A DNA stretch of 64,000 nucleotides, taken from NCBI GenBank assembly GCA_037189525.1, contig JBBCJC010000001.1, positions 224,001 to 288,000 of the forward strand. Reading direction: 5' to 3'. How positions within the stretch are numbered: position 1 is the first letter of the stretch; each line of letters begins with the position of its first letter. A program made the translations under genes and the position numbers. The stretch is from Gemmatimonadales bacterium. Its GTDB lineage: Bacteria; Gemmatimonadota; Gemmatimonadetes; Gemmatimonadales; GWC2-71-9. Below are positions 3 to 39,135 of the stretch, piece after piece. The notes below the pieces were generated by a model. It was not told the DNA's origin. It did not search any database and saw nothing but the letters and a program-made list of their open reading frames with translations.

Positions 3-3000
3 CTGCTCCAGGTCTGCCGCCGGGCGCGTGTCACGGTCGTCGACCTGGTCCCGTCGTACTGGTCGCGCCTGATCGAGGCCGCCGAGGCCGATCCGTCACT
101 GCTCGCCGGCTCGGCGCTCCGCCTGACGCTATCGGCCAGCGAACCGCTGCCGGCGGCTCTGGTGCAGCGCTGGCTGGCGCTGACCGGCGGGCAGACCCGC
201 TTCATCAACATGTACGGCCAGACCGAGACGGCCGGCATCGTCTCGACGGTGACACTGACGCCGAGCCTGCTGTCCGATGGTGCCGTCGCCCCACTCGGCG
301 CGCCCTTGCCGCGCACCGAAATCCACCTGCTCGACGAATCGGGGATACCCGTTGCCGACGGCGCCGCGGGCGAGATCTGGATCGGCGGCGATGCGGTCGG
401 CCCCGGCTACCACAATCGTACGGAGCTGACGGCTGAGCGGTTCGTCGATCACCCTACGCTCGGCCGGCGGCTCTATCGCACCGGCGACCTGGGGGTGCGG
501 CGTCCCGACGGCCTGCTCACCTTTGCCGGACGGCGCGACAACCAGCTCAAGGTGCGCGGCCACCGGGTCGAGGTCGAAGAGGTCGAGGCCACGCTGCAGC
601 GCCATCCGCAGGTATCGGCCGCGGCCGTGCATGCGCGCGAGCACCAGGGCGAAGCGACGCTGGTGGCGTTCGTGACCTCCACCGACGGCGCCGCGCCGAC
701 CGGGCGCGAACTCCGGGAACATCTGCTGCGCTCCGTACCGGAATACATGGTCCCCGCCGCGTTCCAGGTAGTCCTGGCCCTGCCCCGGACACCGAACGGC
801 AAGCTCGACCGCGGCGCGCTGTCGTCGCTCCCCGTCACCTTAGGAGCCGATCGCGCCGCCTACGTCGCGCCGCGCACCGATGCTGAGCGGGCCATGGCGC
901 GGATCTGGGAGGACGTGATCGGCGTTGCACCGGTCGGCGTTCACGACCACTTCTTCGAAATCGGCGGTCACTCACTGATGGCCGTGCGGGTGCTGGCCCG
1001 AATCCGTTCGGTGTTCGGGACTGAGCCGCCCCTTCGCGTCCTGTTCGAACAGCCAACGGTTGCCGCGCTCACGGCGGCCGTCGCTGCGCTTGGCGCGGAC
1101 TCGGGTGCCGACGCCGGCATCGGCCAACTGACCGACGGACGCACCGCCCCGCTCTCGTTTGCGCAGGAACGGCTCTGGGTCCTCAATCAGATCGAACCGG
1201 ACAGCGCCGCGTACAACCTGGTCGCGGCGTTTCGGATGCGCGGCGCGCTCGACCGGGGCGCCCTCGAGCGCACCCTGACGGAGATCGTCCGCCGCCACGA
1301 GGCGCTGCGCACCTCCTTCCCCAGCACCGACGGCGTAGCTCGCCAGGTGGTCCAGCCGGTCGGCGAGTTTACGCTGGCCGCCGAGACGATCTCCCCGACA
1401 ACCGACGAGACGCTGACCCGCCGCGCGGCAGAGCTGGCGGCGCAACCGTTCGATCTGAGCAACGGACCGCTGTTCCGGGGCACCCTGCTCCGCGCGGCCG
1501 ACGACGACCACTTGCTGGTCATCGTAATGCATCACATCGTGTCGGACGGGTGGTCACGCGGGGTGCTCTACCAGGAAATCGGCGCGCTCTACAAGGCCTA
1601 CGCTTCGGGCGAGGCATCGCCGCTGGCCGAGTTGCCGATCCAGTACGGGGACTTCGCGGCCTGGCAGCGGGACTGGCTGACCGAATCGGTCCTGGCGCGG
1701 CAGTTGGACCACTGGACCCGCCTGCTGGCCGCTCCACTGCCGACGCTCGACTTGCCGACCGACCGGCCGCGCCCCCCGATTCAGACGTTCAAGGGCGCAA
1801 CGCACCGTTTCGAGATCCCTGCCGAGCTTGCATCCCGGCTCAAGGCGCTGGGCGCGGAAGAAGATGCGACCGCGTTCATGGTGCTGCTCGCGGCCTTCCA
1901 GGCCATGCTGAGCCGCTACAGCGGTCAGGACGACATCATCGTCGGGTCGCCGACGGCCGGCCGGACCCGGCTCGAGACGGAAGGCCTGATCGGCTTTTTC
2001 GTCAACACGCTGGCGCTGCGCACCAGCCTGGCCGGTAATCCCAGCTTCCGCACGCTGCTGGGCCGCGTGCGCGAGGTGGCGCTAGGCGCGTTCCAGCATC
2101 AGGATCTGCCGTTCGAGCGGCTGGTCGAAGGGCTGCACCTGCCGCGCGATTTGAGCCGGTCGCCCCTGTTCCAGGTGCTGTTCATCCTTCAGAACACGCC
2201 GGTGCATCCGCTGGCGCTGCCGGGCGTGGTCTTGGAGCAGGTCGACGTCGACGCCGGCGCCGCCAAGTTCGACCTGACGCTCTCGCTTGCCGTGCAGGAG
2301 AGCGGCTACGTCGGCCACCTCGAATACAATACCGACCTGTTCGACGCCGCCACCATCGAGCGGCTGGGCAACCACTACGTCACGCTGCTCTCTGCCGCGG
2401 CCGCCGCGCCCGACCTGCCGATCGAACGTCTGGGCATCCTCACACCGGCCGAACGCGTCCAGATCGACCGGACCTGGAACGACACGGCCCGCCCGCTGCC
2501 CAGCGCCGACACCCTGGTGACCCAGTTCGAGCGCCAGGTGGCCCTGACGCCCGACACGCCCGCCGCGAGCTTCGAACACGAGACGCTCAGCTACCGAGAA
2601 CTCAACGCGCGCGCCAACCGGCTGGCCCGGCGCCTGCGCGAACTCGGCGTGGCTTCCGGTGTACCGGTCGGCATCTTTGCGGAGCGCTCGCTCGAAATGC
2701 TGGTGGGGATGCTGGCCACGCTGAAAGCAGGCGGGGCGTATCTGCCGCTCGACCCCGCGTACCCGGCCGATCGGATTGCCTTCATGCTGGAGGACAGCGC
2801 GGCGCCGGTTATCGTCACCCAAGGCCGGCTGGTCGACCGCCTGCCGGCCACGACCGCCAAGGTGCTCCGGGCCGACCTCGACGCGGTGTCGTTTGCGCGG
2901 CTGCCGGATGCAAACCTGGACGGCGGTGCAGCACCAAGCGATCTGGCCTACGTGATCTACACGTCGGGTTCGACCGGACGCCCCAAGGGCGTCATGATCG

Positions 3001-5465
3001 AGCACCGCAACGTGGTCAACTTCTTCCTGGGCATGGACGAGCGGATCGGCGGCGACGGGCCGGGAACCTGGCTGGCCGTCACCAGCATATCGTTCGACAT
3101 CTCCGTGCTCGAACTGTTCTGGACGCTGACGCGCGGCTTCCATGTCGTGATCCAGGGCGATCCGGAGCGTGTCCGCGCGCAGACTGGCACACCCCGGTCG
3201 GACCGCAAGCTGGGCTTCAGCCTCTTCTACTTCTCGAGCGCCGCGGACGTTCCGCCCGCCGACCGGTATCGGATGCTGATCGAGGGCGCCAAGTTCGGCG
3301 ACGCGAACGGATTCGAAGCGATCTGGACGCCCGAGCGGCACTTCCATGCGTTCGGCGGGCTGTATCCGAACCCGGCGGTCGTGAGCGGCGCCATCGCGGC
3401 CATCACGTCGCGCATCAAGATTCGCACGGGCAGCGTCGTGTTGCCGCTGCACAGCGCCGTCCGCGTGGCCGAAGACTGGGCCGTGATCGACAATCTGTCG
3501 AACGGTCGCGTTGGGCTGGGCTTTGCGTCGGGCTGGCACGACCGTGACTTCGTCTTCGCGCCGCAGAACTACGAGCGCCGACGCGAGATCATGGCGGAGA
3601 TGATCGACACCGTCCGCCGCCTATGGCGCGGCGAGGCCGTGACCATGCCCGGGGGCGCCGGCAAGGACGTAACGATCTCGACGCTGCCGCGCCCGATCCA
3701 GCCGGAGCTTCCGGTCTGGGTGACCGCGGCCGGCACCACCGCGACCTACGAAAAAGCCGGCGAAATCGGCGCCAATGTCCTGACCCACCTGCTGGGCCAG
3801 AGTCCGGAGATTCTGCGCGAGAAGATCGCGGCGTACCGAGCGGCATGGCGCCGCGCCGGGCATACCGGAACCGGTCATGTCAGCCTAATGCTCCATACCT
3901 ATGTCCATCCGGACATGGAGCACGTCAAAGCCAGGGTCTGGCATCCGTTCCGCGACTACCTGCGCACCTCCGTCGACCTGATCAAGGGTCTTGCGGAGGG
4001 CCGCGGTCAGGACATCCGGTCGGCCGAGTTTACCAAGGAGGACATGGAAGCGCTGCTCGACCATGCCTTCCATCGGTACTTCGATACGAGCGCGCTGATG
4101 GGCACGCCCGAGACCACGTTCGAGATGGTCGAACGGGTCAAGGGCATGGACGTCGACGAAATCGCCTGCCTGATCGACTTCGGCATCCCGATCGACGAGA
4201 CGCTGGCCGGGCTCGAGCACCTGGCAGAGTTGCGGCGCCGCTCGGACGAGTCGTCCGCCAGCGCCTCGGCAGACTACGACATTCCTGCGCAGCTCCGGCG
4301 CTGGAACGTGACGCACTTCCAGTGCACGCCCTCGATGGCGGCCATGCTCACGGCGCAGCCCGAGATCAAGCCCGGCTTTGCCGGCCTGACCAAACTCATG
4401 ATCGGCGGGGAAGCCTTCCCACCCGCGCTGGCCGGTGAGCTGCAGCAGCTGGTCCAGGGTGATGTCATCAACATGTACGGCCCGACCGAAACGACGATCT
4501 GGTCGACGACGCAGCAGTTGGAACCGAACGTGACGTCTGTGCCGCTCGGCACTCCGATCGCGAACACGGTCTGCCGGGTGGTCGACCGGAACCTGGAGCC
4601 GGTGCCCGTCGGAATTGCCGGCGAGCTGCTGATCGGCGGCGCGGGCGTGGTGCGCGGCTACCTCAATCGCGCGGAGCTGACGGCTGAGCGCTTCATCGAC
4701 GATCCGCTGGCCCCGGGAAACCGGGTCTATCGGACCGGCGACCTGGTGCGCTGGCGACCCGACGGGCGGCTCGAGTTCCTGGGCCGGCTCGATCACCAGG
4801 TCAAGATCCGCGGCCATCGCATCGAGCTGGGCGAGATCGAAGCCATCGTCGAACAGCACTCGACGGTCCGTGAAGCCGTGGTGATCGCCCGCGAGGATGT
4901 CCCCGGCGACAAGCGGATCGTAGCATACGTCGTGGCGCGTGGCGCGCAGCAGCCGGACGCCTCGGAGATTCGCCAGGCGGTCGGCGCGCGGTTGCCGGAG
5001 TATATGATTCCGAGCCATGTGGTGGTGCTCGATCGGTTGCCGAGAACGCCCAACCTCAAGGTCGACCGCAAGGTCCTTCCGGCGCCCGATCAGCACGCCG
5101 CGCCTGCCGCAAGCTACGTACAGCCGGGCAGCGAACTCGAGCAGACCATCGCCGCGATCTGGCAGGAAGCGCTCCGGCTGCCGCAGGTCGGCGTCAACGA
5201 CAACTTCTTCGATATCGGCGGCCACTCGCTGCTGACGGTGAAGGTGCATTCGCGGCTGCGCGCCGCAATCGATCGGCCGGTGTCGATCACCGATCTTTTC
5301 CGCTTCCCGACCGTGCGGGCGCTGGCTGAGCATTTGGGTGGTGCGGCACCGGCCGTAGCCACGACAGAAGTTTCGCAAGCACGGGCCGGCGCCCGGCGCG
5401 AAGCGATGCAGCGCCGGCGTGGGCGTCGCCCGGCCGGTGCGAGTCCAGACTCACAGGATCAGTAA
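3..5465 (+). CDS. NRPS, 5'-truncated: A(partial)-T-C-A[interrupted by luciferase-like monooxygenase]-T
   Basis: Frame is open from base 3 (LLQVCRRARVTVVDLVPSYW...), so the true start lies outside the window. A motifs YRTGD, QLKVRGHRVE, PNGKLDR. Carrier motifs FFEIGGHSL and FFDIGGHSL. C motif HHIVSDGWS. Second A has YTSGSTGRPKG, FDISV, NMYGPTETT. LLM insert FSLFYF...WTPERHFHAFGGLYPNPAV at ~3205-4240. Confidence 0.97.
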   Translation: MLQVCRRARVTVVDLVPSYWSRLIEAAEADPSLLAGSALRLTLSASEPLPAALVQRWLALTGGQTRFINMYGQTETAGIVSTVTLTPSLLSDGAVAPLGAPLPRTEIHLLDESGIPVADGAAGEIWIGGDAVGPGYHNRTELTAERFVDHPTLGRRLYRTGDLGVRRPDGLLTFAGRRDNQLKVRGHRVEVEEVEATLQRHPQVSAAAVHAREHQGEATLVAFVTSTDGAAPTGRELREHLLRSVPEYMVPAAFQVVLALPRTPNGKLDRGALSSLPVTLGADRAAYVAPRTDAERAMARIWEDVIGVAPVGVHDHFFEIGGHSLMAVRVLARIRSVFGTEPPLRVLFEQPTVAALTAAVAALGADSGADAGIGQLTDGRTAPLSFAQERLWVLNQIEPDSAAYNLVAAFRMRGALDRGALERTLTEIVRRHEALRTSFPSTDGVARQVVQPVGEFTLAAETISPTTDETLTRRAAELAAQPFDLSNGPLFRGTLLRAADDDHLLVIVMHHIVSDGWSRGVLYQEIGALYKAYASGEASPLAELPIQYGDFAAWQRDWLTESVLARQLDHWTRLLAAPLPTLDLPTDRPRPPIQTFKGATHRFEIPAELASRLKALGAEEDATAFMVLLAAFQAMLSRYSGQDDIIVGSPTAGRTRLETEGLIGFFVNTLALRTSLAGNPSFRTLLGRVREVALGAFQHQDLPFERLVEGLHLPRDLSRSPLFQVLFILQNTPVHPLALPGVVLEQVDVDAGAAKFDLTLSLAVQESGYVGHLEYNTDLFDAATIERLGNHYVTLLSAAAAAPDLPIERLGILTPAERVQIDRTWNDTARPLPSADTLVTQFERQVALTPDTPAASFEHETLSYRELNARANRLARRLRELGVASGVPVGIFAERSLEMLVGMLATLKAGGAYLPLDPAYPADRIAFMLEDSAAPVIVTQGRLVDRLPATTAKVLRADLDAVSFARLPDANLDGGAAPSDLAYVIYTSGSTGRPKGVMIEHRNVVNFFLGMDERIGGDGPGTWLAVTSISFDISVLELFWTLTRGFHVVIQGDPERVRAQTGTPRSDRKLGFSLFYFSSAADVPPADRYRMLIEGAKFGDANGFEAIWTPERHFHAFGGLYPNPAVVSGAIAAITSRIKIRTGSVVLPLHSAVRVAEDWAVIDNLSNGRVGLGFASGWHDRDFVFAPQNYERRREIMAEMIDTVRRLWRGEAVTMPGGAGKDVTISTLPRPIQPELPVWVTAAGTTATYEKAGEIGANVLTHLLGQSPEILREKIAAYRAAWRRAGHTGTGHVSLMLHTYVHPDMEHVKARVWHPFRDYLRTSVDLIKGLAEGRGQDIRSAEFTKEDMEALLDHAFHRYFDTSALMGTPETTFEMVERVKGMDVDEIACLIDFGIPIDETLAGLEHLAELRRRSDESSASASADYDIPAQLRRWNVTHFQCTPSMAAMLTAQPEIKPGFAGLTKLMIGGEAFPPALAGELQQLVQGDVINMYGPTETTIWSTTQQLEPNVTSVPLGTPIANTVCRVVDRNLEPVPVGIAGELLIGGAGVVRGYLNRAELTAERFIDDPLAPGNRVYRTGDLVRWRPDGRLEFLGRLDHQVKIRGHRIELGEIEAIVEQHSTVREAVVIAREDVPGDKRIVAYVVARGAQQPDASEIRQAVGARLPEYMIPSHVVVLDRLPRTPNLKVDRKVLPAPDQHAAPAASYVQPGSELEQTIAAIWQEALRLPQVGVNDNFFDIGGHSLLTVKVHSRLRAAIDRPVSITDLFRFPTVRALAEHLGGAAPAVATTEVSQARAGARREAMQRRRGRRPAGASPDSQDQ

Positions 5466-5468
5466 GCA

Positions 5469-8400
5469 ATGAGCGAGCAGCAGCTTCCCCCGGGATCGGC
5501 CGAGACCGATATCGCCATCGTCGGCCTGGCCGGCCGGTTCCCGGGCGCCCCCGACGTCGCCACCTTCTGGAAGAACCTTCGCGACGGCGTCGAGAGCGTC
5601 ACCTGGCTCACCGACGACGAGTTGCGCGCCGCGGGCGTCCCGGACGAGCTGCTGGCCGATCCCGATTACGTCCGCGCCTCGTATCAGATGCCGGACATGG
5701 CCGGATTCGATGCCGGGTTCTTCGGCTTTGCGCCGCGGGAAGCGGCCATCATGGATCCGCAGCAGCGCCACTTTCTGGAACTCGCCTGGACGGCCATGGA
5801 GCACGCCGGGCACGCGCCGGAGCGCTTCGGCGGATCGGTCGGCGTCTTTGCCGGCTGCGGCGCCAACATCTACATGATGCTCAACCTGCTCACCAACCCC
5901 GAGCTGGTCGAGAATGTCGGTCTCTTTCTGTTGCGGCATACCGGCAACGACAAGGACTTCCTCGCCACCCGGGTGTCGTACCTGATGAACCTGCGGGGGC
6001 CGAGCGTCAACGTGCAGACGGCCTGCTCGACCTCGCTCGTAGCGGTCCACATGGCGGTCCAGAGCCTGCTCAGCAACGAGTGCGACATGGCGCTCGCCGG
6101 GGGCACGACCGTCAAACAGCCGCATCCGGTCGGCTACCTGTACAAAGAGGGTGAGATCGTGGCGCCGGACGGCCACTGCCGGTCGTTCGACGCCAAGGCC
6201 GAGGGCACCGTCTTCGGCAGCGGAGCCGGCGTCGTCGTGCTGCGGCGGCTGGCCGACGCGATTCGCGACGGCGATACCATCCACGCCGTGATCAAGGGAT
6301 CCGCCATCAATAACGACGGCGCCCAGAAGGTCGGGTATCTGGCGCCGAGCGTGGATGGACAGGCGCAGGCCGTCGCCGAGGCGCTCGCGCTGGCCGACAT
6401 CGATCCTGAGTCAATTCAGTTCGTCGAATGCCACGGTACCGCGACGCCGGTCGGCGACCCGATCGAAGTGGCTGCGCTGACCCAGGCCTATCAAGGCGCA
6501 GGAGCAGAGCGCACCGGGTACTGCGCCCTGGCGTCGCTCAAGTCGAATGTCGGGCACCTCGATACCGCTGCCGGCGTTGCGGGCGTGATCAAGACGGTCG
6601 AGGCGCTCAAGCATCGGCAGATCCCGCCTTCGCTGCATTACACCGAGCCGAACCCGGCCATCGATTTTGCGTCGAGTCCGTTCTTCGTCAATGACACGCT
6701 TCGCGAATGGACCACCGACGGCGGGCCGCGTCGCGCCGCCGTGAGTTCACTCGGCGCCGGCGGCACCAACGCCCACGTCATCGTCGAAGAAGCGCCGGCG
6801 CTACCGCCCTCCGGGCCGTCGCGCGAGCATCAGCTCTACGTGCTTTCCGCCAAGACCCCGACGGCGCTCGACACGGCCGCCGCCAACCTGGTGGCCGCGC
6901 TGCGCACCAGCCAGGACGCCCCGGCCGACGTGGCCTTTACGCTGGCGCAGGGCCGCCAGGCGTTGGCGCATCGCCGCGCCGTCGTGGCGAAGAGCGCCGC
7001 GGAGGCTGCGGACCTGCTCGACAGAAACGACCCCAAAGTCGTACCGACCGCCCAGGTATCGGATCGCAAGCGCACGCTGGCCTTCATGTTCGCCGGCGGC
7101 GGCGCCCAGTACGCGGGCATGGGTGCCGACCTCTACGAAGGCGAACCGGTTTATCGCGCCGCCGTCGACGAGTGTATTGCCCTGCTCCAGCCGCAGCTCG
7201 ACTGGGATCTCAAGACCCTGCTGCTGGCGCCGCCGGCCGATCGCGAACGCCTGGGCGAAGAACTCGAACGGCCGTCGCGCTCGCTGCCCTGCCTCTTCAT
7301 CACGCAGTACGCGATGGCCAGGCTGTGCCTGGCATGGGGCTTCGAACCCCAGGCCATGATCGGCCACAGTATGGGCGAGTACACCGCCGCGCATCTGGCC
7401 GGCGTTTTCTCACTCGCCGACGGCCTGGCGCTGGTGACCCTGCGAGGCAAGTTGTTCGAACGGATCCCGCCGGGCGGGATGCTCAGCGTGCCGCTGGCTG
7501 CCGAAGAACTCCAGAAGCGGCTGCCTGCCGAGCTGTCGATTGCCGCGATCAACGCGCCGGAGCTCTGCGTTGCTTCGGGCCCGCTCCAGGCGCTCGATGC
7601 GCTGGAGAAGGCACTTGCCGCCGACGAGATCGACTGCCGCCGGGTCCGCATCAACATCGCGGCCCACTCGGCGATGCTCGAGCCGATCCTCACGGAATTC
7701 GGCGCGTTCTTTCGCCGGATCACGCTGAGCCCGCCGACGCGGCCGTTCGTATCCAACGTCACGGGCGACTGGATCACGCCCGAGGAGGCGACCAGCCCGG
7801 AATACTGGGTCCGCCACCTTCGCCATACGGTGCGGTTTGCCGACGGCATCGGAGTGCTGCTGCGCGATGAAGGCCGCGTATTGCTCGAGATCGGCCCGGG
7901 GCGCGTGCTTGCCACGCTGGCATCCCTCCACTCCGATCGGAAGGCCGACCAGCCGACGCTGACCTCGATGCGGCATCCGGACGAAGCCGGATCCGACGTG
8001 GCCCACGCGCTCACCATGGCGGGCCGTCTCTGGCTCGCCGGCGTGACACCCAATTGGAACGGTCTCTGGAAGGGTGAACGCCGCCGGCGGATTCCGCTGC
8101 CGACCTACCCGTTCGAGCATCAGTCGTATTTCATCCAGCCCGGCAAGGGCGCCGTGACCAGCAAGCCGTCGCTGACTCGGCGGAACGATGTCGGTCAATG
8201 GTTCTACGAGACCGCCTGGGAGCGGGCTCCGCTGGCCGGAAGGACCGCGCTGGCAGCCGGGACGCGGTGGCTGGTCTTCCGCGACGAACAGGGCCTGGGT
8301 GCGTCGCTTGCCGCGCGACTGGGACGCGACGGGACCGTGATTTCCGTGCTGCCCGGCACCAACGTCCGGCAGGTCGATGCCACGACCTATCAGGTGAACC

Positions 8401-14027: not shown

Positions 14028-14041
14028 GCCGCGCGTCCGCC

Positions 14042-15157: not shown

Positions 15158-15175
15158 TCGTTTCCCCTGTCCAAA

Positions 15176-15191: not shown

Positions 15192-15440
15192 ATTTTTGGC
15201 GAGTTCAGGCAACACCGCCCTGTTTAGCGGATGCCGCACCTTGCTCGAATATGGTGCCTGGAGTCAACACCGTTCAGCAAGTGTTGCAGTAGCACCACAT
15301 ACGGTGATACCGCCGACCCAACTGGGGGCGCGTAAGTCGTGGTATGACAACACCGATGACGACACGGGTGGTGGGTCTGGCTGTGGACAGACTCTTGCCC
15401 GGAGCAGAGCCGTCCCGATGGGAGGCGGACGAAAGGCGAC

Positions 15441-17650: not shown

Positions 17651-17671
17651 ACACTCATTCGGGAGCAGGGC

Positions 17672-17830
17672 ATGGCCAAGGGATCGCTGGTCGGTGAGTT
17701 GTGGTCGTTCATGAAGGCGCGGCGCAAGTGGTGGCTGGCGCCGATCATCGTCATCATGTTGCTGGTCGGGATGTTGCTGGTGTTCGCCCAGGGCTCGGTC
17801 CTGGCGCCGTTCATCTACACCATCTTTTAG
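17672..17830 (+). CDS. 52-aa SxtK/DUF5989-like membrane peptide (absent from ORF track)
   Basis: Translated by hand: MAKGSLVGELWSFMKARRKWWLAPIIVIMLLVGMLLVFAQGSVLAPFIYTIF. GGAG RBS upstream. KWWLAP and APFIYTxF signatures. Confidence 0.88.
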   Translation: MAKGSLVGELWSFMKARRKWWLAPIIVIMLLVGMLLVFAQGSVLAPFIYTIF

Positions 17831-17848
17831 TACGACGGACGGGTCGCC

Positions 17849-18601: not shown

Positions 18602-20141
18602 GCCGTCGACGCTACTCCCGATCGCACTCGTGGTCGTCATGGTGGCGATGGCGCTGACCTGCGCCTGGGGCCGCGAGTTATGGCTCGACGAGGCCCACTC
18701 GGCGTACCTGGCCACGCATGGTCTGCCGACCGTCTGGCGGGGTGTGGTGGGCGACGTCCACCCGCCACTCTACTTCGTCGGTCTGTGGAGCTGGGGCGCG
18801 ATCGTCGGCACCGCGCCGATGGCGCTTCGGCTTTTCTCGATCATCGCCGCGGCCAGTGCGGTGGTGATCACCTGGCTCACGGCCCGAACCGGAGACGACG
18901 AGCAGGCCGGGACCGTCGCGATCGTCCTCATGGCGCTCTCCCCGGCACTGGTGATCTTTGCCGTCGAGATTCGGATGTACGCGCTCGCAATCTGCGCGAT
19001 TGCCCTGGCGCTCTATGCCATTCGCCGCGCACGTCTGGCACCCTCGACCCGGCGTGCACTGATCGCCGGGGGCCTCGGCGCCGTCGCCGCGTTTACCCAT
19101 TACGTCACGCTGATCGCCGTCGTGGGCCTGTTCGCCACCTGGTTCCTGGTCGAGTTACGGAATCGGGAGCGACGGCGTACCGCGCTGATCGCCGGCATCA
19201 CGGCCGCGCTCGCCATCGCGGCATGGCTCCCGATCCTGCTGGCCCAGCGCGCGCACAAAGCGACGCTGGGCGCGGATCTCACGGCCGCGTATGGCGATCC
19301 CGCCACGCTGGTGTTCGGATCGACCGCAGTCGCGCCGCGCAGTCTGGTATCGTCCTTCTTGCTCGCGGCGCAGGACACCGCGAGCATCCTGGGCGTCTTC
19401 CCGGCCGAATCGACGATCCTGCTCGCGACCCTGGCACTCCCGTTCGGCATCCTGATGCTGCTCGCCTTGCGCCGAGCCGGCGGCGGCGATCCCTGGACCT
19501 GGATCCTGATCGGTGGCGGGATGGCCACCGTGGTCGGCATGGTGCTGCTCGGCATCGGAGGGCGACGCTATCTGGTGCCGCTGATCCCGCTCAGCGCGCT
19601 GATTTTCGCGCGCGGCACGACCGACCTCCCGCGGTCGTGGACGCGGATCGTTCGCATCACACTGGTCGCGACGGCTGCCGTGCTGGTGGCCGGTTCTATC
19701 CGCGTTGTGCAGGCCCCCAAACCGACGCCGGTGCAGGACGCGATCCGCTATCTGAGCACCAACGCGGGACCGCAGGACATCGCCGTCTTCCATGCGCCCT
19801 ACGCGATGCTGCTGTTCGACTACTACGCGGATCGGACCCACCTGGCAATCCGTCGATCCGGCTTTCCGGAATCCACGATCGACTGGTGGCAGCGCCAGAC
19901 CTTCCAGGGCTGGGGCAGCGCCATACCGACACACAGCGACGTCGACCGTGTCGAACGACAGCTGCGCGACCTGCCCGACGCCGCGGCGCTCTGGCTCGTC
20001 CTCTATGAAACGGGCTACTACGATCCGACGAGCGCGCTCGAACACCGGCTCGGCACCGTCGGCGTGCCGACCGAGCCGTGGCGGTCGACCGACGGCGCCT
20101 GGCGCCTGGTTCGGATCGCGTCCGCGGGGCCGCACCCGTGA
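18588..20141 (+). CDS. GT-C fold integral-membrane glycosyltransferase (PMT/ArnT-like)
   Basis: Motifs LWLDEAHS, DVHPPLYF, LRLFS, EIRMYAL, THY. Multiple transmembrane segments. Confidence 0.85.
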   Translation: MRTDKPSTLLPIALVVVMVAMALTCAWGRELWLDEAHSAYLATHGLPTVWRGVVGDVHPPLYFVGLWSWGAIVGTAPMALRLFSIIAAASAVVITWLTARTGDDEQAGTVAIVLMALSPALVIFAVEIRMYALAICAIALALYAIRRARLAPSTRRALIAGGLGAVAAFTHYVTLIAVVGLFATWFLVELRNRERRRTALIAGITAALAIAAWLPILLAQRAHKATLGADLTAAYGDPATLVFGSTAVAPRSLVSSFLLAAQDTASILGVFPAESTILLATLALPFGILMLLALRRAGGGDPWTWILIGGGMATVVGMVLLGIGGRRYLVPLIPLSALIFARGTTDLPRSWTRIVRITLVATAAVLVAGSIRVVQAPKPTPVQDAIRYLSTNAGPQDIAVFHAPYAMLLFDYYADRTHLAIRRSGFPESTIDWWQRQTFQGWGSAIPTHSDVDRVERQLRDLPDAAALWLVLYETGYYDPTSALEHRLGTVGVPTEPWRSTDGAWRLVRIASAGPHP

Positions 20142-21259
20142 TCGTGCTGCCCCTCGAACGCGCCGCAGGCATCGACGCCGCGTTCTACGACTCGCGCGAT
20201 CCCGCCAGGCACGCATGCCAGGCGGAGATCCTCGCACGCGGAGGCCACCTGCCGGTCCTGCACCGCACCGAAACGGAAGGGCTCGACGGCAGCGGCGACC
20301 GGTGGTTCGTCGGCTTGCGCGAAACGGGTCAACCGTTCGCGGCGGGGTTCGCGGTCGACATCCGGGCGCCTCGGCATGCCCTGGGGCATCACGTGCTCCG
20401 CGTAGGCCACTTCGGCGCCGACATCCCGGACCGGTTCCGCGCCGCGGCGGCGGAGGCGCTTGCCCACCTGGCAAAGCGCAGCCGCCGGACCTTGCGGACC
20501 AACGTCGGAATCTTCGCTCTGACCAGCGATGCGATGCAGCAGTGGAGGGACGCGCTGGCATCGGTGGGCTTTACCGCCGAGTCCGATCCGTGGGGCTACC
20601 AGTACACGCTGATGGTCGACCTCCAGCGCTCGGAGGAGGAGATCCTGGCCTCCTTCTCGCGATCCGGCCGCCGCAACATCCGCGAGATCACCAAGTATGG
20701 TATCGAGGTAGAACCGGTCACGGACCCGGCCCTGGTCGGTCGCATCGATGCGCTGATGACGGAAACGATGGGGCGTACCGGGGGAACCTACGTTCCGGTG
20801 CCGTGGGCCAACCGACTCGAACTGGCTCGGGCCCACCCGAACTTGGTCCGACTCGTAGGCGCGTACCTGGGAAGCGATCGGGGCCCCGATTCGCTGGTGG
20901 CGTTTGCCTGGTCGTACAACCACGGCGCCATTGCCGAATACAGCGACGCGGCGTCGCTCCGGATCCCGGGCTCGCGGGCACCGCTGGCCTACGCACTGGT
21001 CTGGGACCTGATCCGCTGGGCCCGCAGCGTCGGCGCCTCCTGGGTCGACCTAGGCGGTGTGACCGCCGGACGATATGATGACGCCACGGACCCGCTGGGC
21101 GGCATCTCCGACTTCAAACGCTCGTTTTCCGAGGACGTCCGGCACGTTGGCACGGAAATGGTACTCCATGCCACGACGATCCGAGCGACCGCGGCGCGTT
21201 GGCTCACCAGCCGGCGGGCGGCCGCGACCGCGCCATCACCTGATTCGGCTTCTCGATGA
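20138..21259 (+). CDS. FemAB/FemX-like GNAT-fold protein
   Basis: GTG at 20138 overlaps the upstream stop. Motifs TLMVDLQRSEEEILASFSRSGRRNIR, LVWDLIRWAR, DLGGV, GISDFKRSF. Confidence 0.8.
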   Translation: MIVLPLERAAGIDAAFYDSRDPARHACQAEILARGGHLPVLHRTETEGLDGSGDRWFVGLRETGQPFAAGFAVDIRAPRHALGHHVLRVGHFGADIPDRFRAAAAEALAHLAKRSRRTLRTNVGIFALTSDAMQQWRDALASVGFTAESDPWGYQYTLMVDLQRSEEEILASFSRSGRRNIREITKYGIEVEPVTDPALVGRIDALMTETMGRTGGTYVPVPWANRLELARAHPNLVRLVGAYLGSDRGPDSLVAFAWSYNHGAIAEYSDAASLRIPGSRAPLAYALVWDLIRWARSVGASWVDLGGVTAGRYDDATDPLGGISDFKRSFSEDVRHVGTEMVLHATTIRATAARWLTSRRAAATAPSPDSASR

Positions 21260-22497
21260 CGACACCAGACGCGATCGTGAGCGTCCCCTCCGCCGATTCG
21301 GTTAGCGCACGCGCCGACGACAACACGGGACAACCGGCCGGACGGGCGCACACCGGACGGATCCGCTCGATCGACGGACTCCGTGGCGTGGCCGTTCTCA
21401 CGGTAATGCTGCTCCACTTCACGCTGATGCGCCCCTCCAATCTCTGGGAGGGCGGACTGGTCCAATTGCTGGACCTCGGCTGGATCGGGGTGGACCTCTT
21501 CTTCCTGGTGTCCGGTTTCCTGATTACAGGAATCCTCTGGGAGGCGCGCGGAACCGACGGCTACTTCTGGCGGTTTTATACCAGGCGGACGCTTCGGATC
21601 TTTCCGCTCTACTACGCGTTCCTCTTTGCGCTGCTGGTGGTCCTGCCACTCTTGCTGAGCCAGTACGAAGCCGAACACGCCACGAACGACCGGCGGATCT
21701 GGCTCTGGACCTACCTCAGCAACTTCCTGATGGCCCGCGACGGCTGGGAGGGGATGCCGTCGCATACCACGCATCTGTGGTCCCTGGCCGTCGAGGAGCA
21801 GTTCTACCTGATCTGGCCGCTGGTCGTGTTCCTGCTGAGCTACCGTGGTCTGGTGGGGACCTGCCTCGCGATTCTCGGCCTGTCTCCCCTGGTGCGCGCG
21901 GCGCTCGACCATGCACTCCCGAACGGCATCGCCGCCTACACGCTCCTGCCGGCCCGGCTCGACAGCCTGGCCCTTGGCGCTCTGCTTGCTCTGCTGGTCA
22001 GAACCGGGCCATCCACGATCGACCTGCGACGTGGCGGTGTCTGGTTGCTCGGGACGGGAACGGTCGGCCTGATCGGCTTGAGCGCCTTGGGTCGCCTTCA
22101 CGGATGGGGCGGGCTGCTGCCGCCCCTGCACTATGACGTGCAAGTCGTCGGCTATTCGCTGATTGCGGTGGCGTTCGGCGGCGTCCTGTTGCTCGCGCTC
22201 ACGGCGGCACCGGGCTCCCGACTCGATCGACTGCTGGCCACACCGTTCCTGCAAAGCCTGGGCAAATACAGCTATGCGCTGTACCTGTTCCACGTCCCGC
22301 TGCGCAACATCATCCGAGAGCGGGTGCGCGACGCGGGCGGGTTGCCACGCATCGGCGGCTCCGAACTGCCGGCCCAGATTCTCCTGTTCGTGGTGGCCAT
22401 CGGCATCACCTGGTGCCTGGCCGTCGTTAGCTGGCATCTCTTCGAAAAACACTGGCTCCGCCTCAAAGACCAGGTTCCCTACGGGAAAGCCGCATGA
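21256..22497 (+). CDS. Acyltransferase family 3 (OafA-like membrane O-acyltransferase)
   Basis: Motifs IDGLRGVAV, GVDLFFLVSGFLIT, RRTLRIFPLYY, HLWSLAVEEQFY, SYALYLFH. Confidence 0.93.
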   Translation: MTTPDAIVSVPSADSVSARADDNTGQPAGRAHTGRIRSIDGLRGVAVLTVMLLHFTLMRPSNLWEGGLVQLLDLGWIGVDLFFLVSGFLITGILWEARGTDGYFWRFYTRRTLRIFPLYYAFLFALLVVLPLLLSQYEAEHATNDRRIWLWTYLSNFLMARDGWEGMPSHTTHLWSLAVEEQFYLIWPLVVFLLSYRGLVGTCLAILGLSPLVRAALDHALPNGIAAYTLLPARLDSLALGALLALLVRTGPSTIDLRRGGVWLLGTGTVGLIGLSALGRLHGWGGLLPPLHYDVQVVGYSLIAVAFGGVLLLALTAAPGSRLDRLLATPFLQSLGKYSYALYLFHVPLRNIIRERVRDAGGLPRIGGSELPAQILLFVVAIGITWCLAVVSWHLFEKHWLRLKDQVPYGKAA

Positions 22498-23984
22498 GTA
22501 CGCCTGCGCGGCCGACGAACCGGCTGGCGTTCAACACTCTGGTCTACGGCGCCGGCATCGTGATCAGTCGGGCGGCAGCATTCATCATGCTGCCCGTCTA
22601 TACCCGCATGCTCACGCCAGCCGACTACGGTCTGCTGCAGATCCTCGACATGACCGTCGAGGTGGCGATCATCCTGGTCAGTGCCGGCATCACGATCGGT
22701 GTCCTGCGCTTCTACTTCAAGGCCACGAGCGAAACCGAACGCAACCAGGTTCTGGCGAGCGCGCTGGTGTTTCAGACCATCCTGAATGCGGTCGGCTCCC
22801 TGCTCATCGTTGCGGCGGCCCGGCCGATCCACCTCCACGCCCTCGACGGCGCCGGTACGATCTCGATGGTCTACCTGGCGGCGGCCAATCTGACGGTCGG
22901 CCTGCTGATGACGGTGCCGCTGCTCAAAATGCAGGCGGAAGGCCGGTCGGGGCTCTACATGGCCGCGTCGGTCACCAAGCTCCTGATCCAGCTCACGCTC
23001 AACATCGTGTTCCTGGTGGGCCTCAAGACCGGACCCGTCGGTATTCTCTGGAGCACGTTCCTGAGCAACGCCGTGATCGGGTCGATTGCCGTGTGGTGGA
23101 TGCTGCGCAGTACCGGATTCGCGGTCGACCGATCGGCGATCCGGGATCTGCGACGCTTCGGGATTCCCTACCAGATCATGATCGCGGGAACGTTCCTCCT
23201 CGCGTTCGGTGATCGGTTCATTCTCCAATCGCTCAGCGGCCTCACCGCCGTGGGGATCTACTCGCTGGCCTATCAGTTCGGCTTCCTCCTGGTCAACCTC
23301 GGCGCGACACCCTTCTTCCGGGCCTGGAACCCGATCCGGTTCCAGATCGCGACCAACCCGCAAACCGAGCGGGATGCGACGTATGCCCGTGGATTTCGGC
23401 AACTCGACCTGATCCACGTCACGCTGGGCATCGGCATCGCGGTCTACGTCAAGCCGGTCCTCATGATCATGTCGGATCCGGCCTACCATGGAGCGGCCTC
23501 CCTGGCTCCGCTGATCCTGCTCGCCTATCAGTTTCAGACGTGGGCGGATGTGGTTCGCTTCGGGATCGACGTATCGGAGAGGACCAAGTACGCCTCGTAC
23601 GCCGTCTGGATCACCGTCTTCGTGGCACTCGGCCTCTACCTGGTGCTGATTCCCAGGTTCGGCGCGCTCGGCGCGGCTATGACCGCCGTGGTAGCCTTCT
23701 GGCTGCGTTTCCAGCTGACCTTCTTCTGGGCACAGCGGCTCTTCCCGATCCGATATGACTGGGGATTTCACGTGCGGCTCCTCGCGGGAGCCACGGCGCT
23801 GACGATCGGATACTTGCTGATCCCGGTTGACGGCCTGCTCCCGACGATCGGCCTCGCGACCGCGATCGTGGCGGCCTACTTCGCGGTGACGTGGTTCGGC
23901 GTGATGTACCCGGAGGATCGGCAGCAGGTCCTGACCATTGCACGAGGGCTGCCCGCCCGCTTCAAACGCACCCGCACGGCGTAG
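22494..23984 (+). CDS. Wzx-type oligosaccharide flippase
   Basis: Roughly 12-14 hydrophobic segments. Motifs LPVYTRMLTPADYG, DRFIL, VGIYSLAY, LIPRFGALGAA. Confidence 0.88.
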   Translation: MSTPARPTNRLAFNTLVYGAGIVISRAAAFIMLPVYTRMLTPADYGLLQILDMTVEVAIILVSAGITIGVLRFYFKATSETERNQVLASALVFQTILNAVGSLLIVAAARPIHLHALDGAGTISMVYLAAANLTVGLLMTVPLLKMQAEGRSGLYMAASVTKLLIQLTLNIVFLVGLKTGPVGILWSTFLSNAVIGSIAVWWMLRSTGFAVDRSAIRDLRRFGIPYQIMIAGTFLLAFGDRFILQSLSGLTAVGIYSLAYQFGFLLVNLGATPFFRAWNPIRFQIATNPQTERDATYARGFRQLDLIHVTLGIGIAVYVKPVLMIMSDPAYHGAASLAPLILLAYQFQTWADVVRFGIDVSERTKYASYAVWITVFVALGLYLVLIPRFGALGAAMTAVVAFWLRFQLTFFWAQRLFPIRYDWGFHVRLLAGATALTIGYLLIPVDGLLPTIGLATAIVAAYFAVTWFGVMYPEDRQQVLTIARGLPARFKRTRTA

Positions 23985-23993
23985 TCCGCCGTT

Positions 23994-24890
23994 CTACGCA
24001 GCCAGCAACCCGGCCAGCCGCATCGCAAATCCGTCGATCGAGATACCGGCGGGCACATTCCAGCGGGGTAGATCGAACGGTCCGGCGGCGTTGGACATCC
24101 AACCGCCGTCGACCCGAAACGCCGCCTGATACCCGACCTGCCTGGCCACATCGCGGACGGTGTCATCGGCCAAGCCGTAGGGCCAGGAAATCCAGGGTTG
24201 CCAGGGCACGTTCTGCGCAGCGAGCCATGCCAGCGGACGGCGCAGCTCCTCCTGCAGGTCGTCGCCCCGGAGGCGCGTCAGGTTCGGATGCGACCATGTA
24301 TGACTCGCCAGCGTCACGTCGGTCGACGGCAGCTGTCGAGCAAGCGATTGCCACGAGCTCGACACCCGGGACCCCGACATGACCGTCCACGGCGCCCCGG
24401 CCTCGGCCGCCCAGGCGCCGACCTCGGCGCCCAGCCCGCGGCCCCGGGACAGCGCGGTCGCGCGGATGGCGTCCCAGTCCTCCCCGGCCCCCGCCAGCGC
24501 GTCCCACCAGAACGTCTCACCTTCGAGGAGGCCCGGCGCCACGAATACCGTCGACGGCAAACCCCGCTGCGTCAGCTCGGGCAACCCAAGCGAGACCGCG
24601 CCGTGATACGCGTCATCGAACGTAATGGCAACCCGAGGGCGGCGCGCCCGCTGCGGAGCCGGCGCCAGCAGCGCCGCCAGCGGCACGACATCGCAACTCC
24701 GCGTCAGCAGCTCGAGTTGGGCACGGAAGTCGTCGAGAGCAAGGTGGAGCGAGGCGTCGCCGCGGATCGGGTCGCCCGCGGGGACGATGTTGTGATACGC
24801 CAGCACCAGCGCATCGCGGCAACGGAAGCTGCGCAAGACCCGGAGGAGCCCCGAACCGTGCAGCGTCCGCTCGACCGCTCGCTTGATCAC
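23994..24890 (-). CDS. Polysaccharide deacetylase (CE4/NodB)
   Basis: Probable GTG start at 24890 overlapping the upstream stop. Motifs LAYHNI, ITFDDAY, SHTWSHP, SWPYG. Confidence 0.88.
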   Translation of the reverse strand: MIKRAVERTLHGSGLLRVLRSFRCRDALVLAYHNIVPAGDPIRGDASLHLALDDFRAQLELLTRSCDVVPLAALLAPAPQRARRPRVAITFDDAYHGAVSLGLPELTQRGLPSTVFVAPGLLEGETFWWDALAGAGEDWDAIRATALSRGRGLGAEVGAWAAEAGAPWTVMSGSRVSSSWQSLARQLPSTDVTLASHTWSHPNLTRLRGDDLQEELRRPLAWLAAQNVPWQPWISWPYGLADDTVRDVARQVGYQAAFRVDGGWMSNAAGPFDLPRWNVPAGISIDGFAMRLAGLLAA

Positions 24891-26260
24891 GACTGGACGG
24901 CGACCGGACTCCGCGCCGGCGCCATGGACCGGGCCGCCAGGCGATCGCGCATGGCCACGACCTTGAGCGCCCCCAGCGAGAGACCAAAGGCAGTCCAGAT
25001 GAACGCGCCCCACGCGAGAGTCAGGAAGGATCCGGCCACAGCCAAGGCAATCAGGTGCAGAATCAGCGCATCGCACATTGCCGCTTCTTCGGGTCGGGGC
25101 GGCCTCGCTTTTCTGGCGCGCCCGGCCACCCGCTTGAGCATCACGATCGGCACCAGAAACGCCATGGCGAATGCCACCAGGCCCGGAACGCCCAATTCAG
25201 ACCCCATCTCGACCCAGATCGAGTGCGGCGCAGACCACCGCGTCCCCTGCCCCATCTCGTTGAGCTGCCGCACCGTCACGCTGTTGCCGTCCCGGAACGC
25301 GAAGTTGTTGATACCGACGCCGAAGACAGGGCTTTCGATCATGTATCCCATGCCGCGCGTCCACAGCGCCTTGCGGCCCGTCGTCTCCGTGGCGTTGTAG
25401 TCCTCGTTCAACGTCGTGATGGACCGCATCTGGGTCCAGTACCATTCCGACCCCGATGCCGCCACACCACCGATCACGATGCCAAGAAACGCCAGACGAT
25501 ACAGCAGCTTGGCGCCCTGAAAGAAGAAGATGACATAGAGGAGCACGGCGCCGAACGCGATGAAAGCACCGCGGGAACCGCTCAACACGAATGCCTGAAT
25601 CAGCGCAGCCGCCCCGCCGACACTCAACAACTTGACGATGATATTCCCGGTCGCAATGAAATACAGCGCAAACGGCACCGCGCCCACCATGAACATGGCA
25701 GCGTCGTTGGCGTCGTATGAGCCTTCACCCAGACCGCGAAAAGCGGAGGCATCCGAGGCCAGCAATGCGTAGATAACCGCGCCAACCAGGTATACCGCAG
25801 CCAGGCGCCGCAGATCGTGGAAGTCGCGGATCGCGAGCGCCAGGATGAAAAACAGAATGGCGGTCTTGTAGACATCGCCCATGAGGTACGAAATCGATGC
25901 GCCCGGGTAGACCCCGAACGGGGCGCTCAAGGTCGCCCAGACCAGCAGGAACGCCGCCACCTTACCGTAAGGCAGTTTGAGGCGCTGCCAGGCGCGGGCG
26001 CCTCGCGGATTCATCACCCACACCGCCACACTGGCCAGCGCCGCGAGCGTGATCGGCCGGAGGGCGGTCATCCCGGGCACGAGATGGTGAACCCGGGCCA
26101 CCGCCGTGAGGATGAAGGCACAGGCGCAAATCATCAGAAAATCGAGCGATTTGCGCTTCTCGACAGGCGGCACCGGCCCCCCGGAACCCCGGCGGACAGG
26201 CCTTGGCTGACCAACCGACGTGTGCTGCGGCAACGCAACAGCCGTTGCGCTCATTTGCAT
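24887..26260 (-). CDS. O-antigen ligase/Wzy-like membrane protein (Wzy_C)
   Basis: Multi-TM protein. Motifs DANDAA, SGSRGAF, GRKALW, PVFGVG, APHSIW..ELGVPG. Start placed at ATG 26260 (MQMSAT) after GGTAGG. Confidence 0.85.
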   Translation of the reverse strand: MQMSATAVALPQHTSVGQPRPVRRGSGGPVPPVEKRKSLDFLMICACAFILTAVARVHHLVPGMTALRPITLAALASVAVWVMNPRGARAWQRLKLPYGKVAAFLLVWATLSAPFGVYPGASISYLMGDVYKTAILFFILALAIRDFHDLRRLAAVYLVGAVIYALLASDASAFRGLGEGSYDANDAAMFMVGAVPFALYFIATGNIIVKLLSVGGAAALIQAFVLSGSRGAFIAFGAVLLYVIFFFQGAKLLYRLAFLGIVIGGVAASGSEWYWTQMRSITTLNEDYNATETTGRKALWTRGMGYMIESPVFGVGINNFAFRDGNSVTVRQLNEMGQGTRWSAPHSIWVEMGSELGVPGLVAFAMAFLVPIVMLKRVAGRARKARPPRPEEAAMCDALILHLIALAVAGSFLTLAWGAFIWTAFGLSLGALKVVAMRDRLAARSMAPARSPVAVQS

Positions 26261-26382
26261 CGACCTACCATAACTGTTGCGTACGCGCATCGTCAGCCAT
26301 ACCGTTACGAGGACATGGGCCTAGTCCCAAACTTGCACCGGGAGGATCCCAAACGGGACCGCCCCCAGACAACCGGACCAGG

Positions 26383-27600
26383 ATGCTACTCGTCTCCATC
26401 GTCATTTTCAGCGTCGCTGCAATATTCTTGCTCCCGACGCTGTCCGACCTCATCAGCCTGCTTGCCCTCCGCCGAGGCACCGGCCCCCTGGTTCCCCCGG
26501 CGCAGGACACCCGATTTCTCATCCTGATCCCGGCTCACGACGAGGAGCTCCTGATCAGCCATACGGTAGAGTCCACCCGGGCACTCCGGTGGCCGCCGCA
26601 TCTGGTTCGGACCATCGTGATCGCCGACAATTGCACCGATGCCACCGCCGAGGTCGCCCGGGCTGCGGGAGCCGAGGTGCTGGAGCGGCGCCACGAGACC
26701 CTTCGAGGCAAGCCACGCGCCATCGCCTGGGCCCTGGAGCGAGTCGACCTGGCGGATTATGACGCCGTGGTCGTCCTCGATGCCGATTCGCTGATCGACC
26801 CCGGATACTGCCAGGCAATCGCGTCGGCCGCGCCCGTCCGGTCGCGGGCCTTCCAGGGGTGGATCGATGTCAGCAACCGGACCGAAACCGCGCTGACGCG
26901 GATGGGCGCCGTCTTTTCGACGGCCCGTTGCCTGTACGCCAACGAACTCAAGACCCGAACCGGCCTGACCGTCCCCTTCGGCAACGGCCTCTGTCTGGGC
27001 GCCGAAGTGCTCGAACGGCATGGCTGGACCGCGTTCTCGATCTGCGAAGACTGGGAACTCTATGCCATCCTGACCGAGCAGGGCGTACCAGTCCTCGGCG
27101 TTCCCGCCGCCCATACCTATTCGCAGGAAGCGAAGACGCTCAAGCAGGGCTCGAGCCAGCGCAGCCGATGGGCCGCCGGGAAGACGACCGTGCTGGCCCG
27201 GTACCTGGGCCCCTTGCTGCGGACCCGTCGGATCGGCTGGCGCCAGAAACTCGATGCGGTAGCGGAGCTGACGGGCCTGGGCCCGGTCGTGCATGCGGGC
27301 GTTGCGGCGCTCCTGTCGATGCTGGCCGCCGCCCTGGCCGTGCCCGGCTGGCCCTGGCTGGTGGCACTCCTGCTTGGCTCGCTCTTACGCACCGTGGTGC
27401 TCACCGCGCTGGCCCTTCGTCACGACCCGGAACCCGGCAAGGCCATCCTCGCGTTCCTCTACCTCCCCTGGTACGCCGTCTGGCGCATCGTGGTCCAGGT
27501 CAAGTCGTTCGGGATGCTGGGCGACAAACCCTGGGTCCGTACCGATCGTCATGCCCAACAGCCGGCCGATACCCCGCCGCTCGATCGTCAAGGCCCCTGA
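26383..27600 (+). CDS. GT2 membrane glycosyltransferase (CESA-like superfamily)
   Basis: Motifs IPAHDEE, ADNCTD, LDADS, CEDWE, QRSRW (QxxRW). TM helices at both ends. Start at ATG 26383. Confidence 0.88.
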   Translation: MLLVSIVIFSVAAIFLLPTLSDLISLLALRRGTGPLVPPAQDTRFLILIPAHDEELLISHTVESTRALRWPPHLVRTIVIADNCTDATAEVARAAGAEVLERRHETLRGKPRAIAWALERVDLADYDAVVVLDADSLIDPGYCQAIASAAPVRSRAFQGWIDVSNRTETALTRMGAVFSTARCLYANELKTRTGLTVPFGNGLCLGAEVLERHGWTAFSICEDWELYAILTEQGVPVLGVPAAHTYSQEAKTLKQGSSQRSRWAAGKTTVLARYLGPLLRTRRIGWRQKLDAVAELTGLGPVVHAGVAALLSMLAAALAVPGWPWLVALLLGSLLRTVVLTALALRHDPEPGKAILAFLYLPWYAVWRIVVQVKSFGMLGDKPWVRTDRHAQQPADTPPLDRQGP

Positions 27601-39131: not shown

Positions 39132-39135
39132 GCGG

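Follow-up and report, generated by a model that had tools for sequence, protein, structure and literature searches.

We analysed a window of 64,000 nucleotides from a Gemmatimonadales bacterium (G000:C1:224001-288000, where G000 is the host genome). It carries a nonribosomal peptide synthetase-polyketide synthase (NRPS-PKS) assembly line inside a surface-polysaccharide locus of ~66 kb, which extends from Wzc to an amidotransferase. The line has no thioesterase (TE) and is followed by two genes for alpha/beta-hydrolase-fold proteins, Hydr2-like and Hydr1-like, which most likely take the place of the TE. Sequence comparison indicates that the NRPS-PKS-pair line is well conserved. In the explanation that we favour, the pair would transfer a short oxidised unit derived from N-acyl-glycine to the Wzx/Wzy-dependent glycan by transacylation, a proposal which, judged from sequence, we regard as evenly balanced between right and wrong. 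The features of the line are the following (T, carrier domain; LLM, luciferase-like monooxygenase; PCP, peptidyl carrier protein).

3..5465, + strand: NRPS A1-T1-C-A2(split by LLM)-T2, start ~0.7 kb upstream of the window (Pfam/NCBIfam)
3..824, + strand: 3' part of A1, pocket FSSSVRQL, without the amino-binding Asp
2526..5057, + strand: A2 with glycine-type pocket DILQMGMIWK (motif alignment), interrupted between motifs A4 and A5
3216..4235, + strand: LLM of the MupA/Atu3671 family, inserted in A2
5469..11108, + strand: single-module PKS KS-AT-KR-DH-(relic A-subdomain)-T, without TE
10566..11063, + strand: relic A-subdomain and PCP-type carrier, remnant of a terminal NRPS module
11105..11896, + strand: Hydr2-like alpha/beta fold, Arg at the nucleophile site (GLRLG), no transmembrane segment
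11893..12789, + strand: Hydr1-like alpha/beta fold, Cys112-Asp135-His256 triad, no transmembrane segment

The hydrolase pair and the missing thioesterase

A search with the C-terminal half of the PKS in 401 genomes of the phylum was positive in 16, including the host. In the flanks that were fetched, all 12 TE-less PKS loci continued into the pair (G236:C62 by way of a C-A-T gene; G322 fragmented), as against none of the six TE-bearing loci, two of which have less than 2 kb of sequence downstream. GTDB contigs yielded 56 Hydr1-like loci, 55 of them scorable. The pair directly follows a carrier-terminated gene in 46 of the 55, none of these with a TE; four of the others lie at a contig edge and five lack a preceding carrier gene. 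A second, more distant set comprised 32 open reading frames (ORFs): 17 follow a carrier-terminated gene, 12 do not do so directly and three are cut. Seven of the 12 belong to a cassette with an acyl carrier protein (ACP) and an amino acid:ACP ligase. In a quick KS tree, for which seven modular KS of the host genome served as the only outgroup, termini of the TE, C-A-T and Asub-T type (Asub, A-subdomain) are mixed within one clade, with many open forks. Taken together, the pair most likely replaces the TE; gene context lends good support to a role in release. A stricter rule, mutual exclusion of pair and TE per genome, was rejected, as G236, G249, G274 and G321 have both at different loci. The cis-TEs of this PKS family use Cys in 21 of 30 cases, mostly close relatives. 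Cys nucleophiles in TEs fit transacylation by precedent, although they do not prove it.

The C-A-T modules found just before the pair (L071-L149, G236:C62, G037:C1) are mostly glycine-type. Among 19 legible pockets, 15 start with D-I-x-x-L, two are D-P variants and two are of the DVW-H type. In L119 (G322:C3:3076299-3092400) the NRPS-PKS-pair block is split into many short ORFs by frameshifts or assembly errors. L120, with PKS and pair, is a record titled as a Klebsiella pneumoniae metagenome-assembled genome, and its contig is possibly mis-binned.

The sequence-only reading of this DNA had described a six-gene run from the NRPS to a GT4 glycosyltransferase (GT) gene with gaps of at most 14 bp, mostly ATGA overlaps, and the junction coordinates agree. 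The NRPS stop codon (5465) and the PKS ATG (5469) leave a gap of 3 bp. ATGA overlaps join the PKS to the Hydr2-like gene (11105-11108), the latter to the Hydr1-like gene (11893-11896) and this in turn to an SGNH gene (12786-12789), which is 14 bp from GT4. After GT4 a gap of 283 bp follows, where the tight gene coupling stops.

That reading had also related the pair to exosortase-A hydrolases 1 and 2. The two genes do lie adjacent to each other in an exosortase-associated exopolysaccharide (EPS) locus, but both proteins are below cut-off: Hydr2-like scores 102.9 bits with TIGR03101 (cut-off 202.75) and Hydr1-like 85 bits with TIGR03100 (cut-off 168.45). The GLCSG motif of Hydr1 (C112) as well as D135 and H256 are invariant in 41 sequences, and its structure model (pLDDT 87.5) has an alpha/beta-hydrolase fold. 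Hydr1 has the fold and intact triad expected of a trans-acting thioesterase or acyltransferase. Its fold neighbours (VIA-align) are esterases (Z 23), the thioesterase DcsB (Z 22.3) and GrgF (Z 21.9); these are matches to generic alpha/beta-hydrolases, which do not separate hydrolase from transferase. In Hydr2-like proteins the elbow residue is Arg in 52 of 52 pattern-matched ORFs (74 ORFs in total, 22 unmatched). Six natural fusions of Hydr2 and Hydr1 preserve both motifs and sit in cassettes with an ACP and an amino acid:ACP ligase, which suggests that the two proteins form a complex. A fused protein of 545-625 residues closes the cassette in L156, L158-L162 and L165, and also in Azospirillum brasilense; the cassette comprises ACP, acyl-CoA-dehydrogenase-like, amino acid:ACP ligase, DUF1839 and GH2-like genes.

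In the literature searched, mostly open-access texts without supplements, we found neither the pair nor this cluster studied functionally. The available parts of PMC11316326, PMC8788816, PMC3684757, PMC4062626, PMC8739492 and PMC8205485 do not treat the NRPS-PKS-pair system. For the TIGR03100 gene Bcam1334, the accessible part of PMC3584217 guesses at a glycan hydrolase or quality control.

The assembly line and the relic end of the PKS

The NRPS was recognized in the window by the sequence-only reading, but the gene starts upstream, with only the 3' part of A1 inside the window. The full ORF (G000:C1:223229/223262-229465) has a complete A1 domain, the C-domain motif HHIVSDG at residue 768 and GGHS in both T domains; the Pfam/NCBIfam profile search gave no match to a TE or reductase family. 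The A1 pocket lacks the amino-binding Asp, placed by a position numbering that we take to be the usual one, and the substrate is therefore probably not an alpha-amino acid but another starter. Pockets of the FSSSVRQL type also occur in G021, G207, G305 and at host C5:1072387. Searches for A1 relatives in PDB, plasmid and Atlas data returned generic A domains only, and the string SSRD is absent from the accessible part of PMC12283262. The host gene at C5:1072387-1074528 encodes an orphan protein of 713 residues, A-Asub-relic Asub-T, with an A1-type pocket (58% to A1) and an end that is 51% to the PKS end. Neither a hydrolase pair nor a glycan gene lies close to it; the host genome holds one hydrolase pair only.

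The A2 pocket matches DILQLGMIWK of glycine domains with a monooxygenase (MOX) at nine of 10 positions. That code is found in all four MOX-insert Gly domains of the set in the available part of PMC12283262. The inserted LLM passes TIGR04020 (508 bits, cut-off 244), and its nearest solved structure is the PuwE domain (PDB 6KET, E 2.4e-106). By these signatures A2 is an MtaG-type glycine/monooxygenase domain. Most relatives have a shorter NRPS; the single N-terminus scanned, from a Gemmatimonadota relative, is a formyltransferase. The host genome also has a stand-alone TIGR04020 gene at C5:160476-161891.

In the PKS, KR precedes DH. The catalytic residues C186/H322/H363, S634/H733, Y1293, H1374/D1540 and S1832 are preserved in all 35 aligned homologues. 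The AT motif is IAAH, which we take to be non-standard, and a malonyl extender is therefore only assumed. The sequence-only reading had the PKS end in a bare carrier without TE or reductase. The profile search gave no match to either family, but the carrier is not bare, as an AMP-binding_C-like subdomain (residues 1705-1779, E 1.7e-6) precedes it. Compared with the terminal Asub-T of P0063, a fused KS-AT-KR-DH-ACP-C-A-T homologue, the end unit shows 47% identity; its T domain alone is 54% identical to the terminal T of P0063 and 42% to its internal ACP. An ordinary ACP end was rejected, the terminal unit being Asub plus a PCP-type carrier. The catalytic A10 Lys of the subdomain is retained in only five of 35 homologues. 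In a quick tree, 12 relic units group as a single clade (SH-aLRT 96), to which the terminal Asub-T units of the fused homologues are linked with weak support (80). We infer that a longer ancestral protein lost ACP-C-A(core) but retained the subdomain, which gave the present PKS end. Asub-T is present in all 40 loci where a PKS with complete C-terminus directly precedes the pair, and as a hypothesis the relic subdomain may serve docking. The carrier tree leaves out host C5, L137, L139:5277 and L150, which the motif filter dropped, and two internal ACPs, which were removed deliberately.

According to the favoured explanation, NRPS and PKS would build one short acyl unit from a starter acid and glycine, which is oxidised and extended once. 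Judging by the domain signatures, A1 would load a non-amino acid and C would join this starter to Gly on T2. By precedent, the LLM would hydroxylate the alpha-carbon of Gly (MtaG type) or a beta-keto C2 (MupA type), and KS and AT would add one C2 unit, which KR and DH would convert to a roughly C4 amino-acyl chain. Gene context points to docking of the pair on the relic A-subdomain or carrier, where Hydr1 may form a Cys acyl-enzyme with Hydr2 as its non-catalytic partner. The acceptor would be a cytoplasmic nucleotide sugar or lipid-linked repeat, with export via Wzx/Wzy/Wza/Wzc; this is the least supported step.

The polysaccharide locus and alternative explanations

The genes downstream of the pair are listed below.

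12786..14027, + strand: membrane-anchored SGNH protein, motifs GAS, GFND and DYAH
14042..15157, + strand: GT4 glycosyltransferase, best NCBIfam match TIGR03088, below cut-off
15441..17830, + strand: carbamoyltransferase, SxtJ-like and DUF5989 genes (family matches)
17849..23984, + strand: GT2, PMT_2-type membrane GT, FemAB-like GNAT, AT3 acyltransferase and Wzx flippase, overlapping genes
23994..26071, - strand: Wzy/O-antigen-ligase family polymerase and polysaccharide deacetylase (family matches)
26383..27600, + strand: GT2, EpsU-like, below cut-off
36458..42038, - strand: distal arm with GT4-like, DegT aminotransferase, XrtA-system FemAB, XrtA-system deacetylase and methyltransferase
51410..53320, - strand: asparagine-synthase-type amidotransferase, TIGR03108 573.9 bits, below cut-off 816.9

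The sequence-only reading had named Wzx, Wzy/ligase, GT, AT3, FemAB and deacetylase genes, and Wzx, Wzy_C, GT2/GT4, AT3, FemAB-like and deacetylase all match Pfam; the carbamoyltransferase, SxtJ-like and DUF5989 genes were missed. Wzy and the deacetylase are encoded on the opposite (minus) strand. FemAB and deacetylase of the distal arm are above the cut-offs of TIGR03019 and TIGR03006, respectively. It was also correct that the window contains no Wza, Wzc, priming transferase or exosortase, but these lie just outside it. The stretch C1:210918-222945, within 13 kb upstream of the window start, encodes Wzc, Wza, priming sugar transferase, exosortase and EpsI, all five at a distance of 6-13 kb, as well as a response regulator and four further GTs; WecB follows at 17 kb. 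The line is thus located inside a complete Wzx/Wzy-dependent, exosortase-associated EPS locus with priming transferase, GTs, Wzx, Wzy, Wza, Wzc, exosortase and EpsI. The exosortase passes TIGR02602 (146.6 bits, cut-off 105.55) and is below every subtype model tested (XrtA 152 versus 208). Similarly, the window has no phosphopantetheinyl transferase (PPTase), as had been noted, and two PPTase-family genes are found elsewhere in the host genome (C1:332081 and C2:800865). A separate multi-module PKS cluster, which the second of these PPTase-family genes accompanies, is located at C2:815052-855444. A promoter scan gave matches at chance level (two versus 2.1 expected).

The trio of carbamoyltransferase, SxtJ-like and DUF5989 genes also occurs near the related loci G021, G328, L089, L091 and L161; a role in carbamoylation, either of the glycan or of the acyl unit, is conceivable. 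Two large Big_2 repeat proteins (~1215 and ~1303 residues) are encoded at 27984-36089 within the EPS locus, and genes of this type recur next to related loci.

The link to glycan genes extends beyond the host. In the 44 Hydr1-like loci whose non-core flank measures 5 kb or more, BLAST found at least one glycan gene in 25 and at least two in 18, as against 4.7% and 0.6%, respectively, of random 10-kb windows of the host genome scored by the same method; with Pfam labels and wider flanks, 30 of 44 were positive. Homologous lines usually occur with glycan genes, in agreement with the sequence-only reading: in the 15 other PKS genomes of Gemmatimonadota, 10 lines lie among glycan genes, two have none within 40-60 kb and three are on contigs that are too short. 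Among the 31 plasmid matches of the PKS, four were inspected. Those from Ruegeria, Paracoccus and Shinella are PKS and NRPS orthologues set among GTs and sugar transferases; the Chroococcidiopsis match is a different PKS cluster without glycan genes. The TIGR04020 domain is present in 16 of 16 PKS genomes versus 21 of 401 overall, and TIGR03019 in 13 of 16 PKS genomes versus 98 of 385 others and in 29 of 40 Hydr1-like genomes versus 82 of 361 others. G021 shares core and export block with the host but differs in its tailoring genes (SGNH, AT3, GTs); in G037 the corresponding position of the EPS locus is taken by another NRPS/PKS together with the pair. In Variovorax paradoxus VAI-C the order is NRPS-NRPS-PPTase-pair-wza-wzc-sugar transferase, all in one direction. 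As to the proposal of the sequence-only reading that the line supplies an acyl unit to a glycan, the pair behaves as the missing release unit; transfer to the glycan is what we infer from sequence.

SGNH and AT3 were rejected as obligatory partners, being missing beside most cores. The variable part of the G021 locus (G021:C1:167892-173518) contains a DltB/AlgI-like MBOAT, a small gene of ACP size and an FkbH-domain protein, apparently a second carrier-based acylation set.

A number of observations weigh against transfer to the glycan. Fourteen of the 44 loci stay glycan-negative even when wider flanks and Pfam labels are included, and the genomes counted are related, so that the counts overstate independence. 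Only 13 of 111 TIGR03019 genomes have the PKS, and the polymer therefore does not need it; most EPS loci of this type are without the line, and none of the glycan enzymes is a constant companion of the core. The complete genome G283 has PKS and pair at C1:80 kb, the LLM-NRPS next to haem genes at 2.15 Mb and TIGR03019 at 4.05 Mb, all widely separated. PKS and pair are likewise unlinked to the LLM-NRPS in the L101, L102 and L109 genomes, which like G283 each hold one LLM-NRPS and TIGR03019, and PKS plus pair, NRPS and EPS genes lie far apart in several Longimicrobiales genomes. The pair also follows other TE-less NRPS lines in non-glycan settings (e.g. G378:C1, G196:C1, G321:C183, G408). Roseobacter-type orthologues have an ordinary Ser TE (nine of 30), and among the genes listed in the accessible part of PMC3584217 the Burkholderia cluster Bcam1330-1341, with its TIGR03100 gene, has no carrier. 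As a separate observation, a glucose/sorbosone-family pyrroloquinoline quinone (PQQ) dehydrogenase (a cluster of 16 ORFs, of which the representative was annotated) often flanks the PKS-pair block, even without glycan genes (L070-L073, L083, L088, L091, L101, L102, L109, L113, L114), but not in the locus of the window.

Such findings bear on the alternatives. The pair may be a trans-acting thioesterase that frees a small metabolite (acid, amide or lactam), the position in the EPS locus serving co-regulation with matrix production. The many TE-less lines with pair outside glycan loci are in keeping with this, as are the interchange of pair and cis TE in one PKS clade, the esterases, DcsB and GrgF among the fold neighbours of Hydr1, and split systems with PKS and pair apart from the NRPS. 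We nevertheless consider it fairly unlikely, in view of the strong association with glycan genes that the loci show in different phyla, of a core without any dedicated exporter or resistance gene, and of the pair's service to ACP/amino acid:ACP ligase cassettes in EPS loci. A further, improbable alternative is a small glycoconjugate or glycolipid, in which the acyl unit is glycosylated after release, or moved to a lipid or surface protein, instead of reaching the Wzy polymer. No GT is conserved beside the core in Gemmatimonadota, and the predicted chain is short and polar, without a fatty-acyl loading domain; on the other hand, Ruegeria and Paracoccus have a GT2 gene placed between those for PKS and NRPS, the Roseobacter four-gene core includes a GT, a UDPGT-family gene follows one pair (L137), and the locus itself has a PMT_2-type membrane GT and an exosortase.

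Finally, the NRPS-PKS-pair block might be independent cargo in a variable surface-glycan island, without functional link. Its distribution is patchy: of the 21 other genomes in the genus only G021 and G014 have a full-length PKS match (KR-DH-carrier covered), and of the 401 in the phylum 16 do. Its neighbours vary, G014 having no glycan gene within 21 kb downstream. However, the association recurs in Myxococcota, Pseudomonadota and Alphaproteobacteria, also with non-orthologous lines, and the block is translationally coupled to SGNH and GT4. Its GC content at third codon positions (0.82-0.86) is like that of housekeeping genes (0.85-0.87), and a recent foreign insertion was rejected on this ground. 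We regard the cargo explanation as highly improbable.

Returning to transfer onto the Wzx/Wzy glycan, a more general form of this proposal is that a Cys/Arg pseudo-heterodimeric transacylase grafts the acyl group, that the portable dead Asub/carrier relic is its docking site, that any carrier chemistry can thereby be coupled to a glycan, and that the Roseobacter product is polymer-bound. This we put forward tentatively, with more doubt than confidence. If true, it explains why the product of the Roseobacter cluster never turned up in extracts. The relic A-subdomain/carrier end and the exchange of TE for pair within one PKS clade are new. Two orphans meet in the line, a widespread Roseobacter-type PKS/NRPS cluster and a hypothetical exosortase-system hydrolase pair, and from the exchange the pair can be assigned a function, chain release, that is open to experiment. 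Should the polymer prove to be the acceptor, many 'silent' NRPS/PKS clusters would be devoted to glycan tailoring, with products missed by solvent extracts, and the pair would be a new tool to put assembly-line acyl groups on sugars. Cultured carriers are Variovorax paradoxus VAI-C for the pair and Ruegeria and Paracoccus for the TE version.

Comparison with known systems

By sequence similarity, the line is a TE-less sister of the Roseobacter PKS/NRPS/GT cluster. In the available part of PMC4337385, a four-gene PKS/NRPS/glycosyltransferase/PPTase cluster is given for 28 of 57 Roseobacter-clade genomes, with an uncharacterised product. The PKSs are 41-44% identical over KS to DH, with the same KS-AT-KR-DH order, and their KS fall into the same clade (quick tree); the A(LLM)-T part of the NRPS is 47-51% identical and has the same pocket. 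The orthologues in Ruegeria, Paracoccus and Shinella lie among sugar transferases, a flippase and an XrtD exosortase. The Roseobacter cluster has a cis Ser-TE, whereas here relic Asub-T and Hydr2/Hydr1 are found instead. Moreover, the starter part is an A1-T-C module here but shorter in Roseobacter-type NRPSs, and the GT2 and PPTase of the Roseobacter core do not adjoin the line.

The best NCBIfam matches of the pair, in the same gene order, are the exosortase-A hydrolases TIGR03100/TIGR03101, which are hypothetical equivalogs. In either case the pair lies in an exosortase EPS locus that includes members of TIGR03019 and TIGR03006. Their partner is the stand-alone ligase TIGR03098, whereas here it is a megasynthase, and both genes remain below cut-off.

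MtaG and MelG (myxothiazol, melithiazol) have a Gly A domain split by a monooxygenase, as here. They are C-A-MOX-A-T-TE modules for which alpha-hydroxylation of Gly is proposed, according to the accessible part of PMC11411415. The MtaG/MelG module is terminal, carries a TE and yields an amide, whereas the A2 module here feeds a PKS without TE, and the oxidised glycine unit would therefore be extended. MupA hydroxylates only ACP-bound beta-keto substrates, as stated in the available part of PMC10952193. The LLM shares TIGR04020 membership with the luciferase-like alpha-hydroxylases MupA, OocM and PuwE but, unlike these, is embedded in an A domain.

Carrier-built acyl units are passed to sugars in butirosin biosynthesis (BtrI/BtrO/BtrH) and in the tetronate pathway of Vibrio cholerae O1, and RkpA and WcbR are PKSs of capsule loci. 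These systems use stand-alone enzymes or lipid-anchor PKSs, and we know of none among them with an NRPS-PKS hybrid and a Cys/Arg hydrolase pair. Although a full member of no family tested, the line would, by analogy, work like carrier-dependent acylation of sugars.

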